NCBI GenBank assembly: GCA_000004985.1
Contig: GG739069.1
Direction: 5' to 3' (one strand)
Source: Naegleria gruberi
Lineage: Eukaryota
Length of the DNA: 8,453 bases
Shown: piece after piece, positions 1 through 8,453 of the stretch
How the letters are laid out: the number at the start of each line of letters is the position of its first letter
How positions within the stretch are numbered: the stretch's first letter is position 1
Notes under the pieces: generated by a model
Told to the model about the DNA's origin: nothing
What the model saw: the letters and a program-made list of their open reading frames with translations, nothing else
The model's database searches: none
Position numbers and translations under genes: made by a program

Positions 1-1
1 T

Positions 2-739
2 AGAAAACAGTTGGTACATGTTATCCAACAGATTTTCCATATTATTCAATTCTTTCATAAATCTGGCCGAAACTAGAGTCTTGTGATGGACTAAACTAGC
101 ATAAAATCTATTTCTCAAGGTTTTTTCGTTATCCAAATAAAAATTAATAAGGGTATGATAATAGCTTGCTTTGATTTGATTTCCTTCTGCGACACAAGTC
201 ATAAACATCAAGTGACAAGAGGCACCCCAATAAAACTGTGTGATATGATCCACAGAAAGTGCTGCAATTTCACATTCTGCCCTTCTCAAAATATAATCCA
301 CATAGTCCAATTCACCCAACAGTTGTGAACTCAATGTCAAAATACCCAAATAGAAAGCATAAATACATCTCAATTCCCCCTTTGATTTTATCCATCCATC
401 ATTATGAAGCAATTCAACATCTTCCCCTCTCTCAAAACAATGCAAGTAATTATTCACAAAATGTACAAGTTTAGCCCTCTCAATCAGAGGATGAATACCA
501 CAAATGAAAGTAAAGTACAACTCAATCACCCTCATAGGTGTAATTGGAGAGGGTTTAGTTGTAAATATTCCAGCACTACCATTTGCATTATTGGTCATTG
601 TAATATCGGTACTACTCTGATCATCGGAAGTCTTTTTCTTAATAGTATCATCGGATGATGATGACGATGACTTGGATTTATCCTTTGATTTTAATGAATA
701 TAATTCAGAACCCTTTCCTCTCTTTTGTGGTGTATTGTA
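2..739 (-). CDS. Fungal-specific transcription factor (middle-homology region, Fungal_trans-like), partial. The C-terminal part continues past the left edge of the window and the true 5' end is unresolved.
   Basis: Reverse-complement translation is open for 246 codons from 739 down to 2 with no stop. The ORF track omits it because it runs off the window. The peptide reads ...YNTPQKRGKGSELYSLKSKDKSKSSSSSSDDTIKKKTSDDQSSTDITMTNNANGSAGIFTTKPSPITPMRVIELYFTFICGIHPLIERAKLVHFVNNYLHCFERGEDVELLHNDGWIKSKGELRCIYAFYLGILTLSSQLLGELDYVDYILRRAECEIAALSVDHITQFYWGASCHLMFMTCVAEGNQIKASYYHTLINFYLDNEKTLRNRFYASLVHHKTLVSARFMKELNNMENLLDNMYQLFS. The motif LYF..I.GIHPLI....L matches the start of the fungal transcription-factor middle-homology region (recognised from memory, not searched). 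Candidate starts are ATG at 757-755, which is followed five codons later by an in-frame TAG at 742-740, or the first downstream ATG at 598-596. The plus-strand ORFs 259..474 and 404..658 in the track overlap this gene and are treated as spurious. Confidence 0.65.
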
Positions 740-924
740 CTATAAGAAGTTTTCCATTCACATATTCATATGAATAGTGTAATTATTATTGTAATTAAAT
801 ATATCGAAATATGAAGTGATAATATTTTGATGATGGGGGTATAAGGAATATTTTCAATTAATTGAAACGTACAACACATTCCGATCCGACTGCTAAACAC
901 TTTGAGCATCCACTTAATTTCTTA

Positions 925-1134
925 TCACACTATTTTGATGAAGTTTTTAAATGAAAGTTTTAAAAGATGAAAACAAACCTTTTTATGCAATTTTCTACAT
1001 CGAATACATGCAATGGGATGGCAATCTCCACTAAACGTCAATTGATTCATTTGCTGATGTTCCTGTTGTTTGTCATTACTTTCACTATTATCGGGAGGAG
1101 ATGATGATGATGAAGGATCCACTTGATGAAACAT
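925..1134 (-). CDS. Small Cys-rich ORF with an incomplete Zn(II)2Cys6-like motif (..ACIRCRKLHKKVC..). It may be the N-terminal exon or a fragment of the downstream transcription-factor gene; the gene model is unresolved.
   Basis: This is the 69-aa ORF from the track. It reads MFHQVDPSSSSSPPDNSESNDKQQEHQQMNQLTFSGDCHPIACIRCRKLHKKVCFHLLKLSFKNFIKIV. The stretch A-C-x2-C-R-x5-K-C resembles the first half of a Gal4-type zinc cluster, but the C2-C3 spacing is 7 rather than 6 and the second CxxCx6C half is missing. It lies 180 bp upstream, on the same strand, of a gene encoding a fungal-specific transcription-factor domain. A Ser run and Gln-rich patch are typical of yeast transcription-factor N-termini. 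Confidence 0.3.
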   Translation of the reverse strand: MFHQVDPSSSSSPPDNSESNDKQQEHQQMNQLTFSGDCHPIACIRCRKLHKKVCFHLLKLSFKNFIKIV

Positions 1135-1465: not shown

Positions 1466-1777
1466 ATGATTGGTGCTGGTGGTATGCCAGGTGCCGGTGC
1501 CGATGCTGCTGGTTCTTCCGATGATGCTCCTCCATCTGGTGCTCAACCAAAACTCTCTCGACTCTTACAAATTGAACAAGATTTTGCTGCAAAAGATGAC
1601 CTTGGTATTATTTCCGAAATACATGATAGTAACCAAAAGATTCTGTTGATATCATGCCACACCTTGAATGCGGATCATTCTCTCAACACGGATCATGTAA
1701 TAGTCAAGATTGATACCATCATTAGATCATACAAGATCCGAAATCCCAATACCACAATCAAGGCACCTCTCATGATT
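1466..1777 (+). CDS. 5' portion of a protein-coding gene with a Gly/Ala-rich N-terminus, truncated by the assembly gap. Hypothetical protein.
   Basis: ATG at 1466 sits in the A-rich context aaaaaaATGa and is preceded by an in-frame TAA at 1448-1450. There are 104 open codons up to the first N. The peptide reads MIGAGGMPGAGADAAGSSDDAPPSGAQPKLSRLLQIEQDFAAKDDLGIISEIHDSNQKILLISCHTLNADHSLNTDHVIVKIDTIIRSYKIRNPNTTIKAPLMI. Codon usage is more GC-balanced than the flanks. The family is not recognised. Confidence 0.55.
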
Positions 1778-4700
1778 NNNNNNNNNNNNNNNNNNNNNNN
1801 NNNNNNNNNNNNNNNNNNNNNNNNNNNNNNNNNNNNNNNNNNNNNNNNNNNNNNNNNNNNNNNNNNNNNNNNNNNNNNNNNNNNNNNNNNNNNNNNNNNN
1901 NNNNNNNNNNNNNNNNNNNNNNNNNNNNNNNNNNNNNNNNNNNNNNNNNNNNNNNNNNNNNNNNNNNNNNNNNNNNNNNNNNNNNNNNNNNNNNNNNNNN
2001 NNNNNNNNNNNNNNNNNNNNNNNNNNNNNNNNNNNNNNNNNNNNNNNNNNNNNNNNNNNNNNNNNNNNNNNNNNNNNNNNNNNNNNNNNNNNNNNNNNNN
2101 NNNNNNNNNNNNNNNNNNNNNNNNNNNNNNNNNNNNNNNNNNNNNNNNNNNNNNNNNNNNNNNNNNNNNNNNNNNNNNNNNNNNNNNNNNNNNNNNNNNN
2201 NNNNNNNNNNNNNNNNNNNNNNNNNNNNNNNNNNNNNNNNNNNNNNNNNNNNNNNNNNNNNNNNNNNNNNNNNNNNNNNNNNNNNNNNNNNNNNNNNNNN
2301 NNNNNNNNNNNNNNNNNNNNNNNNNNNNNNNNNNNNNNNNNNNNNNNNNNNNNNNNNNNNNNNNNNNNNNNNNNNNNNNNNNNNNNNNNNNNNNNNNNNN
2401 NNNNNNNNNNNNNNNNNNNNNNNNNNNNNNNNNNNNNNNNNNNNNNNNNNNNNNNNNNNNNNNNNNNNNNNNNNNNNNNNNNNNNNNNNNNNNNNNNNNN
2501 NNNNNNNNNNNNNNNNNNNNNNNNNNNNNNNNNNNNNNNNNNNNNNNNNNNNNNNNNNNNNNNNNNNNNNNNNNNNNNNNNNNNNNNNNNNNNNNNNNNN
2601 NNNNNNNNNNNNNNNNNNNNNNNNNNNNNNNNNNNNNNNNNNNNNNNNNNNNNNNNNNNNNNNNNNNNNNNNNNNNNNNNNNNNNNNNNNNNNNNNNNNN
2701 NNNNNNNNNNNNNNNNNNNNNNNNNNNNNNNNNNNNNNNNNNNNNNNNNNNNNNNNNNNNNNNNNNNNNNNNNNNNNNNNNNNNNNNNNNNNNNNNNNNN
2801 NNNNNNNNNNNNNNNNNNNNNNNNNNNNNNNNNNNNNNNNNNNNNNNNNNNNNNNNNNNNNNNNNNNNNNNNNNNNNNNNNNNNNNNNNNNNNNNNNNNN
2901 NNNNNNNNNNNNNNNNNNNNNNNNNNNNNNNNNNNNNNNNNNNNNNNNNNNNNNNNNNNNNNNNNNNNNNNNNNNNNNNNNNNNNNNNNNNNNNNNNNNN
3001 NNNNNNNNNNNNNNNNNNNNNNNNNNNNNNNNNNNNNNNNNNNNNNNNNNNNNNNNNNNNNNNNNNNNNNNNNNNNNNNNNNNNNNNNNNNNNNNNNNNN
3101 NNNNNNNNNNNNNNNNNNNNNNNNNNNNNNNNNNNNNNNNNNNNNNNNNNNNNNNNNNNNNNNNNNNNNNNNNNNNNNNNNNNNNNNNNNNNNNNNNNNN
3201 NNNNNNNNNNNNNNNNNNNNNNNNNNNNNNNNNNNNNNNNNNNNNNNNNNNNNNNNNNNNNNNNNNNNNNNNNNNNNNNNNNNNNNNNNNNNNNNNNNNN
3301 NNNNNNNNNNNNNNNNNNNNNNNNNNNNNNNNNNNNNNNNNNNNNNNNNNNNNNNNNNNNNNNNNNNNNNNNNNNNNNNNNNNNNNNNNNNNNNNNNNNN
3401 NNNNNNNNNNNNNNNNNNNNNNNNNNNNNNNNNNNNNNNNNNNNNNNNNNNNNNNNNNNNNNNNNNNNNNNNNNNNNNNNNNNNNNNNNNNNNNNNNNNN
3501 NNNNNNNNNNNNNNNNNNNNNNNNNNNNNNNNNNNNNNNNNNNNNNNNNNNNNNNNNNNNNNNNNNNNNNNNNNNNNNNNNNNNNNNNNNNNNNNNNNNN
3601 NNNNNNNNNNNNNNNNNNNNNNNNNNNNNNNNNNNNNNNNNNNNNNNNNNNNNNNNNNNNNNNNNNNNNNNNNNNNNNNNNNNNNNNNNNNNNNNNNNNN
3701 NNNNNNNNNNNNNNNNNNNNNNNNNNNNNNNNNNNNNNNNNNNNNNNNNNNNNNNNNNNNNNNNNNNNNNNNNNNNNNNNNNNNNNNNNNNNNNNNNNNN
3801 NNNNNNNNNNNNNNNNNNNNNNNNNNNNNNNNNNNNNNNNNNNNNNNNNNNNNNNNNNNNNNNNNNNNNNNNNNNNNNNNNNNNNNNNNNNNNNNNNNNN
3901 NNNNNNNNNNNNNNNNNNNNNNNNNNNNNNNNNNNNNNNNNNNNNNNNNNNNNNNNNNNNNNNNNNNNNNNNNNNNNNNNNNNNNNNNNNNNNNNNNNNN
4001 NNNNNNNNNNNNNNNNNNNNNNNNNNNNNNNNNNNNNNNNNNNNNNNNNNNNNNNNNNNNNNNNNNNNNNNNNNNNNNNNNNNNNNNNNNNNNNNNNNNN
4101 NNNNNNNNNNNNNNNNNNNNNNNNNNNNNNNNNNNNNNNNNNNNNNNNNNNNNNNNNNNNNNNNNNNNNNNNNNNNNNNNNNNNNNNNNNNNNNNNNNNN
4201 NNNNNNNNNNNNNNNNNNNNNNNNNNNNNNNNNNNNNNNNNNNNNNNNNNNNNNNNNNNNNNNNNNNNNNNNNNNNNNNNNNNNNNNNNNNNNNNNNNNN
4301 NNNNNNNNNNNNNNNNNNNNNNNNNNNNNNNNNNNNNNNNNNNNNNNNNNNNNNNNNNNNNNNNNNNNNNNNNNNNNNNNNNNNNNNNNNNNNNNNNNNN
4401 NNNNNNNNNNNNNNNNNNNNNNNNNNNNNNNNNNNNNNNNNNNNNNNNNNNNNNNNNNNNNNNNNNNNNNNNNNNNNNNNNNNNNNNNNNNNNNNNNNNN
4501 NNNNNNNNNNNNNNNNNNNNNNNNNNNNNNNNNNNNNNNNNNNNNNNNNNNNNNNNNNNNNNNNNNNNNNNNNNNNNNNNNNNNNNNNNNNNNNNNNNNN
4601 NNNNNNNNNNNNNNNNNNNNNNNNNNNNNNNNNNNNNNNNNNNNNNNNNNNNNNNNNNNNNNNNNNNNNNNNNNNNNNNNNNNNNNNNNNNNNNNNNNNN

Positions 4701-5892
4701 NNNNNNNNNNNNNNNNNNNNNNNNNNNNNNNNNNNNNNNNNNNNNNNNNNNNNNNNNNNNNNNNNNNNNNNNNNNNNNNNNNNNNNNNNNNNNNNNNNNN
4801 NNNNNNNNNNNNNNNNNNNNNNNNNNNNNNNNNNNNNNNNNNNNNNNNNNNNNNNNNNNNNNNNNNNNNNNNNNNNNNNNNNNNNNNNNNNNNNNNNNNN
4901 NNNNNNNNNNNNNNNNNNNNNNNNNNNNNNNNNNNNNNNNNNNNNNNNNNNNNNNNNNNNNNNNNNNNNNNNNNNNNNNNNNNNNNNNNNNNNNNNNNNN
5001 NNNNNNNNNNNNNNNNNNNNNNNNNNNNNNNNNNNNNNNNNNNNNNNNNNNNNNNNNNNNNNNNNNNNNNNNNNNNNNNNNNNNNNNNNNNNNNNNNNNN
5101 NNNNNNNNNNNNNNNNNNNNNNNNNNNNNNNNNNNNNNNNNNNNNNNNNNNNNNNNNNNNNNNNNNNNNNNNNNNNNNNNNNNNNNNNNNNNNNNNNNNN
5201 NNNNNNNNNNNNNNNNNNNNNNNNNNNNNNNNNNNNNNNNNNNNNNNNNNNNNNNNNNNNNNNNNNNNNNNNNNNNNNNNNNNNNNNNNNNNNNNNNNNN
5301 NNNNNNNNNNNNNNNNNNNNNNNNNNNNNNNNNNNNNNNNNNNNNNNNNNNNNNNNNNNNNNNNNNNNNNNNNNNNNNNNNNNNNNNNNNNNNNNNNNNN
5401 NNNNNNNNNNNNNNNNNNNNNNNNNNNNNNNNNNNNNNNNNNNNNNNNNNNNNNNNNNNNNNNNNNNNNNNNNNNNNNNNNNNNNNNNNNNNNNNNNNNN
5501 NNNNNNNNNNNNNNNNNNNNNNNNNNNNNNNNNNNNNNNNNNNNNNNNNNNNNNNNNNNNNNNNNNNNNNNNNNNNNNNNNNNNNNNNNNNNNNNNNNNN
5601 NNNNNNNNNNNNNNNNNNNNNNNNNNNNNNNNNNNNNNNNNNNNNNNNNNNNNNNNNNNNNNNNNNNNNNNNNNNNNNNNNNNNNNNNNNNNNNNNNNNN
5701 NNNNNNNNNNNNNNNNNNNNNNNNNNNNNNNNNNNNNNNNNNNNNNNNNNNNNNNNNNNNNNNNNNNNNNNNNNNNNNNNNNNNNNNNNNNNNNNNNNNN
5801 NNNNNNNNNNNNNNNNNNNNNNNNNNNNNNNNNNNNNNNNNNNNNNNNNNNNNNNNNNNNNNNNNNNNNNNNNNNNNNNNNNNNNNNNNNNN
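1778..5892. other. Assembly gap or masked region: 4115 consecutive N.
   Basis: Uninterrupted n from 1778 to 5892. Both long ORFs in the track that span it (1466..6058 plus strand, 1770..5936 minus strand) are artefacts of translating N as X. Confidence 0.99.
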
Positions 5893-6616
5893 GCTAATAG
5901 GTGATATGAGAACACAATCAAAAATCCGTCAAGCACTTCACCACGTCGAACAGGGAGCTGCTGAATCTTATACTCCTCTCCTCAAATATCGTCAAGAAGA
6001 TTTACGTGTTTATCAAGTTGCTAAGAAATTGCATACCATGTGGCAAGAAAGCGACTAGGAAAAGCCAATTACATATGATGATATCGAATTTGCCTTCAAC
6101 TTGTACAAAGTACATTGCGAAAATATGAAAATGATGAAGAGTGAATACTCTCTTGAATATACCAAGTTGATGAAGGTTCTCATTAATATTGTTTTGGTAA
6201 ACAGAGAATATTGCAAGGTTGCCAAACAAGTTCTCAATGAATCAACAAAGAAATACAAGAAGGATATTTCATCAATTGAATCGGCAATTGAATCTAAATT
6301 GAAGGAATATGAATCAACTCAAAGTAATCAAGACAAACTTTTAATGCTCAGACTCTCCTCATACACCATTCAATCTATTTCTAAATTAGACTCTGATTTG
6401 GATGCTTATGAAAATATGGTTGTCCAATGTGTGAAATTGATGTATCCAGAAAGATGTATTATCTATGATTTGGACCTTTGTAAAAAACTTCTTTACATTT
6501 GCCGTACTACAACAGCTTCTTCCCTTTTGGAAAAGAGCAAGGAAATTATGGATGTTTCCTCAGTTCACTATGATAGAGAAAAACTCTTCCAACAAGCTAT
6601 TATTAGGGACAATTAA
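5893..6616 (+). CDS. 3' portion of a protein-coding gene leaving the gap (hypothetical protein), ending at TAA 6614-6616, with one in-frame TAG at 6056-6058. Under a strict standard code this splits into a gene end at 6058 plus a separate ORF 6125-6616 (or the track's TTG start at 6101).
   Basis: A single reading frame is open from the gap edge to 6616 apart from the TAG. Upstream of the TAG it reads LIGDMRTQSKIRQALHHVEQGAAESYTPLLKYRQEDLRVYQVAKKLHTMWQESD. Downstream it reads EKPITYDDIEFAFNLYKVHCENMKMMKSEYSLEYTKLMKVLINIVLVNREYCKVAKQ...AIIRDN. It is the same frame as the 1466 gene, which is how the track fused them. Only 66 nt separate TAG 6056 from the first downstream ATG at 6125, far too short for a yeast intergenic region with a promoter. 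The minus-strand ORFs 6002..6229 and 6055..6258 are antisense to this and treated as spurious. Confidence 0.5.
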
Positions 6617-6630
6617 GGTCATCAAATGTA

Positions 6631-6673
6631 GCCCGTCTAGCTCAGTCGGTAGAGCGTCAGACTGTTAATCTGC
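6631..6673 (+). tRNA. tRNA-derived element. The 5' half is intact (acceptor 5' strand, D-arm, complete anticodon arm with anticodon GTT = Asn). The 3' half is absent or degenerate, so this is a probable tRNA pseudogene or tRNA-half element.
   Basis: GCCCGTC-TA-GCTC-AGTCGGTA-GAGC-G-TCAGA-CTGTTAA-TCTGC fits positions 1-43 of a canonical tRNA. The A-box TAGCTCAGTCGG is good, the anticodon loop is a 7-nt CTGTTAA with U33 and A37, and the anticodon stem pairs 4 of 5. The body is identical in layout to the Lys(TTT)/Asn-type tRNAs known from other eukaryotes. Downstream there is no T-arm (no GTTCRANYC B-box). The best match to the acceptor 3' strand is GACGGGA at 6776-6782, which is 6 of 7 complementary, but it lies about 100 nt away and no T-stem can be folded in front of it. 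A TTTT run at 6680-6683 lies 7 nt after the anticodon arm. The track ORF 6465..6668 overlapping it is spurious. Confidence 0.5.
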
Positions 6674-6958
6674 AACAAATTTTGAAATGAAAAAAAGACT
6701 ACAGCACCACAGGTTCCCAAGTTGTCTCCAACCTCAGTACTGATGTGGCTCGACGATGCTTAACTTCTCAAATCGGACGGGATGAGGTGCATTCATCGTG
6801 ATATGGCCGTAGCCATTCATTACCTCAAAATGTGAAATATCAGCCCAATTCCAAGTTCTAACAAGGGAAACCTTAGATGCTCACATGACCAACACTTGAG
6901 TTTCTAAGGCTATGAAATCCAATTCAGCAAATTATTAATTTACAAAAATCAAAAAAAA

Positions 6959-8453
6959 ATGTATAATCACTGTCATCAGCACAATGATACGTTTGATCGT
7001 GGTGATGATTGGAGCGAGAATTGTCCCGATTTTGCTCTCCTCTCTCCAACAAACAGTTCATTCAAAAATCTCTCCTCCGATATTATTTGTTATATTGTTT
7101 TTCAATATTTGGATTACAAAACAATTACAAGTTGTTTATTATTGAATAAGGAATATTATGGAAAGATTGCAAATAATAGATTTCTTTTTATTAATATGTA
7201 TAACGAGTTATTTATTAATAAGAGAATTGCATTATCATCAGTGCAACTACCAGTACTATTTAATTGTGTATCTTTCAGTTCAGCAAATAATGAGTTATCC
7301 AGTAATTGTGAGAGAATGCTTTTGCAATCTGGGAGAATGACAGATGAAAAATTGGAATGTATTAGAAAAAAGTGGCAAGAATCAATTTAGAAAATGACTC
7401 AACGCAGCACTAGTATTAAGAATGAAAAACAACTACTGTTGAATATTATCAAAAAGATTATCAAAGACAGATTGGATATTTTAAAATTCTTTAAAAATGA
7501 ATTGAAAAGTGCACAAATAGGAGATGGAAAAATGAGACCAGCAGTTGAACTGGTCAAGGAAACACAGGACATTATTGAAAAATTGAAAACTTTTGAAGAA
7601 TTATCGTTGAGCTATCCAAGTTCTAATTACTTTCATGAATCGTTTAATAATTATATAATAGAACAACAGGAAGCTTACGAACCAATTGAGTTGAATAATA
7701 TTATTTCCATACGAGGTTAGTTTCTTCTTCTTCTTTCAAGTTTGAAAAAATTTTATGTAGAAAATACCAAGTCAACCAATGATTATGTACGAAATTCCTG
7801 TTATACTTCTATTTCAATACTAAAATATTTCAAAAATCTTAAATTTCTCTATCTAGCTGGATATTGTGATTTTCAAGAGCCAGTTAAATTGAACAACTTG
7901 AAAGTATTAATTATAAGAACAGGAGTAATGGAAAATTCCATGTTACAATCAATTCTTAACTGCTCATTCCCACAATTGAAACATTTAGAATTATGGTTAG
8001 GGTCACCCTGTCAAATAAGAAGTAAAATGATCGACCTGTCACATTACAATAATGATATTACAGAAAAAAATTTAACAGAACTGCTTTCAGAATCAGATAA
8101 TGGAAAGTATCCAACATTAGAATATTTTGGTCTGAGAAATACTTATAATATTCCACAACTCTTACCACTTATTATGAAATCAAATATTGCAAAAAGAGTT
8201 AGAGTATTGGATTTATCATTATCAGGTTCAATAACAGAAAATGATGCTCTATTTATTGCAGAGCAAATCCAATTACAGAGAAAAGAATTCACATTGTTAG
8301 AATTTGTTGATTTGAGATATAATAATATTCAACTTGAAAATAATCCGAATAGGGATATCGTGATTCAACAAATTGAAGAGGAATTCAACAAAATAGGAAT
8401 TGCAGTTGATGTATCAAAATCTGATTATTGTAGAATGCAGAACATGAAATTGT
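6959..8453 (+). CDS. F-box / leucine-rich-repeat protein (SCF substrate-adaptor-like), 3'-partial. It runs off the right edge of the window and the reading frame contains two in-frame TAG codons (7388-7390, 7718-7720).
   Basis: ATG 6959 (context aaaaaaaaATGt) is the first ATG after an in-frame TAA at 6905-6907. One frame is then open for 498 codons to the window end, interrupted only by two TAGs. The N-terminal segment holds an F-box-like motif, FKNLSSDIICYIVFQYLDYKTITSCLLLNKEYYGKI. LRR-like peptide continues across the second TAG (...LKYFKNLKFLYLAGYCDF..LNNLKVLIIRTG..LKHLELWLGS..LEYFGLRNT..VRVLDLSLSGSITENDALFIAEQI..LEFVDLRYNNIQL). The track reports only the two complete pieces (6959..7390, 7394..7720). 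It omits the open frame from 7721 to beyond 8453 because it has no downstream stop inside the window. Track ORF 7158..7340 is an internal alternative frame. Confidence 0.6.

Follow-up and report, generated by a model that had tools for sequence, protein, structure and literature searches.

The three same-frame open reading frames that run from ATG 6959 to the end of the window, the window being the whole stretch of 8,453 nucleotides analysed here, are, by comparison with orthologues, one gene of Naegleria gruberi, probably with two exons, and the two TAG codons that divide them are probably accounted for under the standard genetic code. The region from 6959 to the window end would encode a protein that combines an F-box-like N-terminus with an LRR domain. 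TAG 7718-7720 would be removed by splicing of a phase-1 GT-AG intron (7716-7760), and TAG 7388-7390 would be a recent nonsense mutation of a conserved Ser codon, which would make this copy a null allele or a young pseudogene. This copy would then make no more than an F-box fragment of 143 residues, or its mRNA would be open to nonsense-mediated decay. The gene is part of a duplicated, poorly assembled mosaic on at least two small scaffolds, in which a neighbouring fragment has likewise undergone a TCG to TAG change. Since one TAG is placed in an intron and the other is likely a nonsense codon, no changed genetic code is required. The initial annotation had preferred translated TAGs to decay; this preference was not supported, as TAG 7388 is an exonic stop at a conserved Ser position and a third TAG, at 6056, derives from TCG in a duplicate that is truncated. 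The finding is an ordinary one, with a small residual curiosity left.

The frame of ATG 6959 (positions equal to 2 modulo 3) contained neither TAA nor TGA after 6905, and up to base 8453 it held exactly two stops, both of them TAG (7388-7390 and 7718-7720), just as had been read at the outset. The other five frames carried 82-127 stops each across the window, thus the frame of ATG 6959 is a real coding frame. ATG 7394 was present one codon past the first TAG, also in agreement with the earlier reading, and the stretch between the second TAG and Met 7927 was 69 codons long, not the 46 stop-free codons stated in the initial annotation, which was inconsistent with itself on this point. Except for TAG 7388, the reading frame of 481 codons was intact and well conserved, and no frameshift was found in the 1.4 kb of internal sequence. 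That it lacks a closing stop is due only to two 1-nt gaps which the final 18 bases of the window show against an independent contig (L006, 98.7% identical). According to the alignment with this contig, the homologous stop is TGA 8445-8447 and the protein ends with ...YCRIAEH*. These two gaps may be read-end errors.

The gene C9374_014053 of N. lovaniensis (P0001, 542 aa), which is named 'F-box domain-containing protein' in UniRef, was colinear over 96% of the conceptual protein with 33% identity, and an environmental Naegleria locus (L007) was colinear across all three pieces too. Further homologues were obtained by an exhaustive HMMER search with the N. lovaniensis protein, and their alignment revealed conservation in all three pieces, with the conserved blocks LFINLYNELF, LIKKIIKDRL, FPQLKHLELW, ENGKYPxLEYFGxRN and RxRxLDLSL. 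Because the orthologues are colinear throughout, the three pieces belong to one gene, and in this the initial annotation was borne out. It had also allowed for orthologues that end near the first TAG; all orthologues were single polypeptides across TAG 7388. Exon 1 (6959..7715, plus strand), with the N-terminal F-box-like motif and a helical linker, was colinear with the N. lovaniensis protein and four other homologues. Exon 2 (7761..8453, plus strand) was assigned to a STM4015-family/RNI-like LRR domain on the basis of NF038076, PDB 2ra8 and the alignment with L006. In the JGI annotation just 6959-7390 was entered, as a separate 143-aa gene (P0008, EFC35682.1/EFC36078.1), which is an exact match to the first piece and is annotated on two small scaffolds.

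For the C-terminal domain, the LRR type proposed earlier was supported. Its 230 residues matched the NCBIfam STM4015 family (NF038076) with E=1.2e-23 over profile positions 94-270 of 290, a match under the 275-bit equivalog cut-off, which denotes domain homology and not equivalog membership. The family profile matched PDB 2ra8 with E=9.4e-16, and a designed LRR protein was matched weakly. The C-terminal residues are homologous to the bacterial STM4015 family, and unlike F-box/LRR (FBXL-type) proteins the gene has an LRR of STM4015 type, not the classical FBXL LRR. The N-terminus carried an F-box-like motif, L-x-x-D-I-x-x-x-I-x-x-Y-L-D, and the F-box resemblance consists of this motif, read by eye, and of the UniRef name. 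The window protein had no match to Pfam F-box (PF00646) or F-box-like (PF12937) at E<=1, and the N. lovaniensis orthologue reached 13.2 bits (E=0.078) with F-box-like, for which the cut-off is 24.3; the Pfam thresholds were reached by neither protein, and the F-box call made earlier was not upheld. An AlphaFold model of the first piece had a pLDDT of 49 and was unusable.

TAG 7718 appears to lie in an ordinary phase-1 spliceosomal intron of 45 nt (7716..7760, plus strand; GTTAGTTTCTTCTTCTTCTTTCAAGTTTGAAAAAATTTTATGTAG) and, with the predicted splicing, would never be translated. The intron, CGAG|GTTAGT...TGTAG|AA, follows ...NIISIR, which is homologous to NIVSLFC of N. lovaniensis, and the TAG starts two bases into it. 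Its borders are GT...AG, in the form GTNNGT...TAG that is common to the two introns of the Zn(2)Cys(6) gene in the same window. The N. lovaniensis gene spans 1689 nt with 542 codons and has a single intron, which sits between ...NIVSLFC and (H)NLVDYESMIS. This intron, TGTC|GTAAGTAG...GGAATAG|AC, is 60 nt long, lies in phase 1 at the homologous codon and is demanded by the annotated protein; its 5' site is GTAAGT, its length is also a multiple of three, and an in-frame TAG likewise stands right after the 5' splice site. At the same codon, locus L007 has a phase-1 intron of 34 nt, GCGA|GTAAGT...TACTGAC...AAATAG|AT. Position and phase are thus conserved in both, and removal of the intron restores colinearity: with 7716-7760 taken out, 24 residues lead to the conserved NLK block vs 25 in N. 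lovaniensis, and with it kept, 15 low-complexity residues are added which have no counterpart in the homologues. Non-splicing gene callers cut three further homologues, P0012, P0013 and P0014, exactly at the intron point, and the separate C-terminal ORFs P0016-P0018 begin just past it. The 5' site GTTAGT and TAG 7718 were both kept in L006 (1.3% diverged).

A shorter intron of 25 nt (7716-7740) was rejected, since it shifts the frame directly into TGA 7743. Exact look-ups of the spliced products gave no match. Because the intron is a multiple of three and contains no second stop, the unspliced DNA looks like one open frame. The initial annotation, in which the LRR ran straight across the second TAG, had not considered an intron; the TAG is inside one that is conserved in two other Naegleria. 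As a short multiple-of-three intron, with GT-AG borders, 45 nt, phase 1 and a position and phase common to orthologues, it shows nothing unusual.

TAG 7388-7390 (plus strand) is an exonic premature stop, which most likely represents a nonsense allele or a young pseudogene, with translation predicted to terminate at 7388. It stands five residues past a conserved Trp, in the conserved Ser column of W-x-x-S/A-V/I-S, where the homologues have WENSVS, WEEAVS, WNNAIS and WNTAIS, and Ser occupies the column in 5/6 homologues at a fixed distance from this Trp. The premature stop is therefore at a residue conserved in functional homologues. An alignment of orthologues had been proposed as a check for a conserved residue at both TAGs; such a residue, the Ser column, was found at 7388, and the other site is intronic. 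At the position of TAG 7388 the N. lovaniensis gene and L007 are contiguous, with no intron, and each in-frame GT..AG interval over it would delete the conserved Trp or the conserved NEKQLLLNIIKKIIKDRL block. In-frame introns over TAG 7388 or TAG 6056 were rejected in general, as no credible 5' site was available without loss of orthologue-conserved residues. The +4 base after TAG 7388 is A, followed by ATG 7394, and termination in eukaryotes is favoured where a purine stands at +4.

Two scaffolds carry an annotation of the truncated product that ends at TAG 7388, which makes a random base-call error there unlikely. The 90%-cluster and exhaustive 50%-representative searches of protein databases recovered no intact F-box gene from N. 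gruberi; the first protein search had missed the exact JGI model P0008, so its 'no hit' is weak evidence. Exact look-ups of the first two pieces and of ten spliced or repaired variants matched JGI models only, and metagenome scans revealed no independent DNA or protein of the TAG 7388 region. Six nonsynonymous and three synonymous differences separate the window from L006, with pN/pS ~0.5 (nine substitutions only), and they include a W to R change in the conserved HLELWLG motif of L006. This divergence is compatible with relaxed constraint, of which nine substitutions give no proof. Since the 481-codon frame is otherwise intact, any decay would be very recent. For TAG 7388 the nonsense-disrupted pseudogene, which the initial annotation had listed as an alternative, is the better reading. 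The gene resembles known nonsense alleles and young pseudogenes in its single premature stop at a conserved residue of an otherwise intact ORF, and in the duplicated mosaic beside a truncated copy with TCG to TAG. It differs from them in that no intact N. gruberi F-box copy was found and that both exonic TAGs have replaced Ser within an identical local context.

The third in-frame TAG (6056-6058) was missed in the initial annotation and lies in the upstream ORF, within an internal fragment of N. gruberi EFC46284.1 of 683 bp (5919..6601, plus strand; codons ~118-346 of 369). The fragment was identical at 680/683 positions to contig L004, which encodes the intact EFC46284.1 protein (P0007, 369 aa) exactly; the intact gene is on a 530-kb scaffold. 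Only three differences were present, namely TCG to TAG (6057), a synonymous ATT to ATC and AGA to AGC. By this comparison TAG 6056 is documented as a nonsense substitution of a Ser codon, which the functional copy in the same genome keeps as TCG; Ser or Ala occupies this column in the homologues. Homology breaks off abruptly at both sides into unrelated flanks, and the missing N- and C-terminal coding parts of EFC46284.1 were nowhere in the window, thus 5919-6601 is a truncated duplicate. The native downstream neighbour of EFC46284.1 is a Rad21/Rec8 gene, not a 5S gene. JGI model P0005 (EFC35681.1/EFC35943.1) starts at the first ATG past TAG 6056, is 100% identical to the ORF after it and is annotated on two small scaffolds. 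The upstream ORF 1466-6616 was also tried as one giant gene and rejected, with homologues of ~370 aa and homology confined to 5919-6601.

Together with the F-box gene, the truncated gene fragment, a 42-nt tRNA-Asn-like fragment and an inverted 5S gene form the mosaic. The tRNA-Asn(GUU)-like 5' fragment (6631..6672, plus strand, ~42 nt) is truncated beyond the anticodon stem; it scored 25 bits with the Rfam tRNA model, under the gathering score, and its anticodon was taken from the sequence. The eukaryotic 5S rRNA gene (6696..6814, minus strand) was matched over its full length by RF00001 (105.4 bits, E=6e-23), with a T-run terminator just past its 3' end. The adjacency of the fragment and the F-box gene recurs on a 14-kb scaffold (EFC35942, EFC35943), which shows that the mosaic is genuine and occurs in two or more copies. 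Rfam revealed neither 5S nor tRNA near the orthologous loci, thus the neighbourhood of 5S gene and tRNA fragment is specific to the N. gruberi locus. In the JGI annotation of N. gruberi, the F-box/LRR gene is broken into fragments (EFC35682, EFC35942) and the truncated duplicate is entered as a gene (EFC35681/EFC35943).

The residual curiosity lies in the likeness of the two exonic TAGs (7388 and 6056). Both replace Ser, and with codon usage taken from 1843 codons, TCG to TAG would make up ~0.7% of random one-step nonsense mutations and ~2.6% of TAG-creating random mutations. Both are preceded at exactly 6 nt by the identical 10-mer GTGGCAAGAA (Trp-Gln-Glu). The pattern GTGGCAAGAA-N6-TAG, which was noticed after the fact, was seen 2 times in the window vs 0.01 expected, and an in-register exact run of at least 10 occurs in ~0.05% of random position pairs. 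Wider homology between the two sites was absent. The 19-nt GT...AG unit GTGGCAAGAA-N6-TAG was considered as a micro-intron and rejected, since its removal gives stops within a few codons at both sites. The shared Ser and the shared GTGGCAAGAA context are not predicted by simple decay.

These features could be produced if UAG were read as Ser in N. gruberi, at least in some contexts (GUGGCAAGAA-N6-UAG-RAAA), possible agents being a suppressor tRNA-Ser(CUA) or a guide that directs pseudouridylation of the stop codon, and this is extremely unlikely on balance. Such decoding would suit the conserved Ser columns under both exonic TAGs, the single step from TAG 6056 to the TCG of the intact paralogue, the low random chance of each Ser replacement among TAG-creating mutations, the sequence context common to both sites and the lack of any other lesion in the F-box gene. 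The anticodon is not recognised by SerRS, and Ser suppressors therefore arise readily. In an engineered system, PsiAG was reported to be decoded as Ser or Thr (PMC7352488). However, one of the two TAGs originally flagged (7718) is intronic, and the same genome keeps TCG in its intact EFC46284.1 copy. TAG 6056 is in a doubly truncated fragment where no selection for readability is expected, thus Ser decoding explains the coincidence there no better than chance. The purine at +4 speaks for termination as well. In the window ARAGORN found no complete tRNA and none with a CUA anticodon, and full-text literature searches revealed no report of a code change, readthrough or suppressor tRNA in Naegleria or Heterolobosea, which also argues against it. 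As to pseudouridylation, H/ACA guides pair directly beside the target U, yet the bases beside it differ between the two TAG sites. The stops seen in N. gruberi-type genes were TAA, TAA and TGA (n=3), and TAG terminates one gene call on a contig of a related Naegleria. If Ser decoding were true, the F-box gene, and possibly its chimeric neighbour too, would be intact with recoded UAG, and if the oddity held genome-wide it could indicate that a well-studied protist naturally recodes UAG as Ser depending on context.

Known nuclear reassignments of UAG only are those of the rhizarian exLh (UAG=Leu) and of Iotanema spirale (UAG=Gln), where many UAGs per gene occur at conserved columns genome-wide together with cognate tRNAs (PMC5304391). 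The window is similar to them in that the in-frame stops are all TAG, neither TAA nor TGA being present, and in that the protist genome is AT-rich. In contrast to them, one TAG here is intronic and just one or two are exonic, too few to establish a code, the intact paralogue has TCG at the same site, and the window contains no cognate tRNA.

It is unlikely that the A at 7389 (and likewise at 6057) arose from faulty sequencing or assembly of low-coverage Sanger scaffolds, in which case the true gene would have TCG and be intact. The tiny scaffold with its 4.1-kb gap and the two 1-nt gaps against L006 in the last 18 bases, typical of read ends, would be in agreement with such an error, as would the single base that separates TCG from TAG and the TCG that the neighbouring gene has where it is intact. 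On the other hand, the annotation of P0008 is the same on two different scaffolds, as is that of P0005, so that the TAGs were assembled at least twice, frameshifts are absent across the 1.4 kb of internal sequence, and the same rare substitution at two sites by error would be improbable. A functional split of the gene is very unlikely; a free 143-aa F-box-like protein and a linker/LRR protein from ATG 7394 would then be made, through reinitiation or a second transcript. The position of ATG 7394 one codon past the stop and the 336 intact and conserved codons downstream (after splicing) would agree with it, but the orthologues, being single polypeptides across TAG 7388, do not. Reinitiation after an ORF of 143 codons is, besides, inefficient in eukaryotes, and an LRR without the F-box would lose its presumed SCF link.

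With recent nonsense at 7388 and an intron at 7718 as the preferred reading, the locus serves as a cautionary example of how a multiple-of-three intron and one nonsense codon can mimic stop-codon reassignment when introns are ignored. The mimicry arises from reading raw eukaryotic DNA as intron-free, in a small duplicated scaffold, and is no discovery as it stands.

P0005 and P0008, which match the window exactly, are N. gruberi proteins and identify it as that species, not as a yeast, the group with whose orthologues the initial annotation had proposed to compare it. The window is a small, gap-containing scaffold of N. gruberi NEG-M, and the ragged 3' end together with the consecutive JGI accession numbers suggests that it is the whole of that scaffold. 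A run of 4115 N bases (1778..5892) represents a scaffold gap or mask. Naegleria is described as mainly a heterozygous diploid (PMC9928731), and the small scaffolds may thus represent alternative haplotypes or copies of repeats. At the other end of the window, a Zn(2)Cys(6) transcription-factor gene (1..1134, minus strand) was identified with two short introns, GTTTGT...ATAG at 978-930 (49 nt) and GTACGT...ATAG at 872-740 (133 nt). Its spliced model matched Pfam Zn_clus with 36.7 bits (cut-off 21), and the match crosses the first junction. Here too a TAG (740-742) interrupts an otherwise open frame, and it is the 3' splice site.

The two exonic TAGs, 7388-7390 in the F-box-like/LRR gene and 6056-6058 in the upstream ORF, shared a local context. 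An identical 10-mer GTGGCAAGAA (W-Q-E) was present 5' of both with a spacing of 6 nt (6040-6058 and 7372-7390), and a conserved Ser was replaced at each of them. The pattern GTGGCAAGAA-N6-TAG was observed twice in the window versus 0.01 expected, and no wider homology was found between the two sites. TAG 6056-6058, the third in-frame TAG, was located in ORF 5919-6601, and sequence comparison with the intact N. gruberi gene EFC46284.1 revealed TCG in its place. This truncated ORF was merely a 683-bp internal piece of EFC46284.1, with homology breaking off abruptly at the ends, and is nonetheless annotated as a gene (EFC35681/EFC35943).

For the F-box-like/LRR gene, orthologous loci were identified in N. 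lovaniensis (L005, 6001-7689) and in an environmental Naegleria (L007, 2520-4080). The N. lovaniensis intron orthologous to the one at 7716-7760 is 60 nt long, likewise a multiple of three, with an in-frame TAG right behind the 5' splice site (GTAAGTAG). The orthologues were divided at this intron into N-terminal and C-terminal "proteins" (P0012-P0018) in public protein sets produced by prokaryote-style gene callers. Another copy of the gene, on a 14,084-bp N. gruberi scaffold, is represented by the JGI model EFC35942.1, which begins within piece 2 and joins ...IELDNIIS directly to ...ELLSESENG with about 120 codons omitted; this skip is probably a prediction artefact serving to evade stops.

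The independent contig L006 carries a near-identical copy of the gene, environmental or allelic. At its position 441 (window 7994) TGG was changed to CGG, giving W to R within the HLELWLG motif, which was kept in all eukaryotic homologues and in one protein of the bacterial LRR family STM4015. This substitution hints that constraint on the F-box-like/LRR gene is relaxed in N. gruberi-type genomes. Compared with L006, two single-base gaps occurred in the final 18 bases of the window (8434-8453), so that the homologous TGA (8445-8447) is no longer read as an in-frame stop; they look like low-quality read-end sequence at the scaffold end.

Between the two TAG-bearing ORFs (6631-6814), a tRNA-Asn(GUU)-like gene was represented by a 42-nt 5' fragment only; after it came a complete 5S rRNA gene in the opposite orientation, which had a T-run terminator of its own. 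At least two JGI scaffolds carried the mosaic of gene fragment, tRNA fragment and 5S rRNA gene, which was missing at the orthologous loci of other Naegleria.

Fragment 5919-6601 is separated by a run of 4115 Ns (1778-5892) from an unrelated 5' ORF with a Gly/Ala-rich N-terminus (1466-1777). The 1530-aa ORF apparently spanning 1778-5892 was rejected, being an artefact that the Ns create. On the minus strand, 1-1134 was occupied by a gene for a Zn(2)Cys(6) binuclear-cluster transcription factor, interrupted by short introns at 978-930 and at 872-740; TAG 740-742, in frame with the gene's open downstream reading frame, is the 3' splice site (ATAG). The domain, here in Naegleria, is of the "fungal-type".
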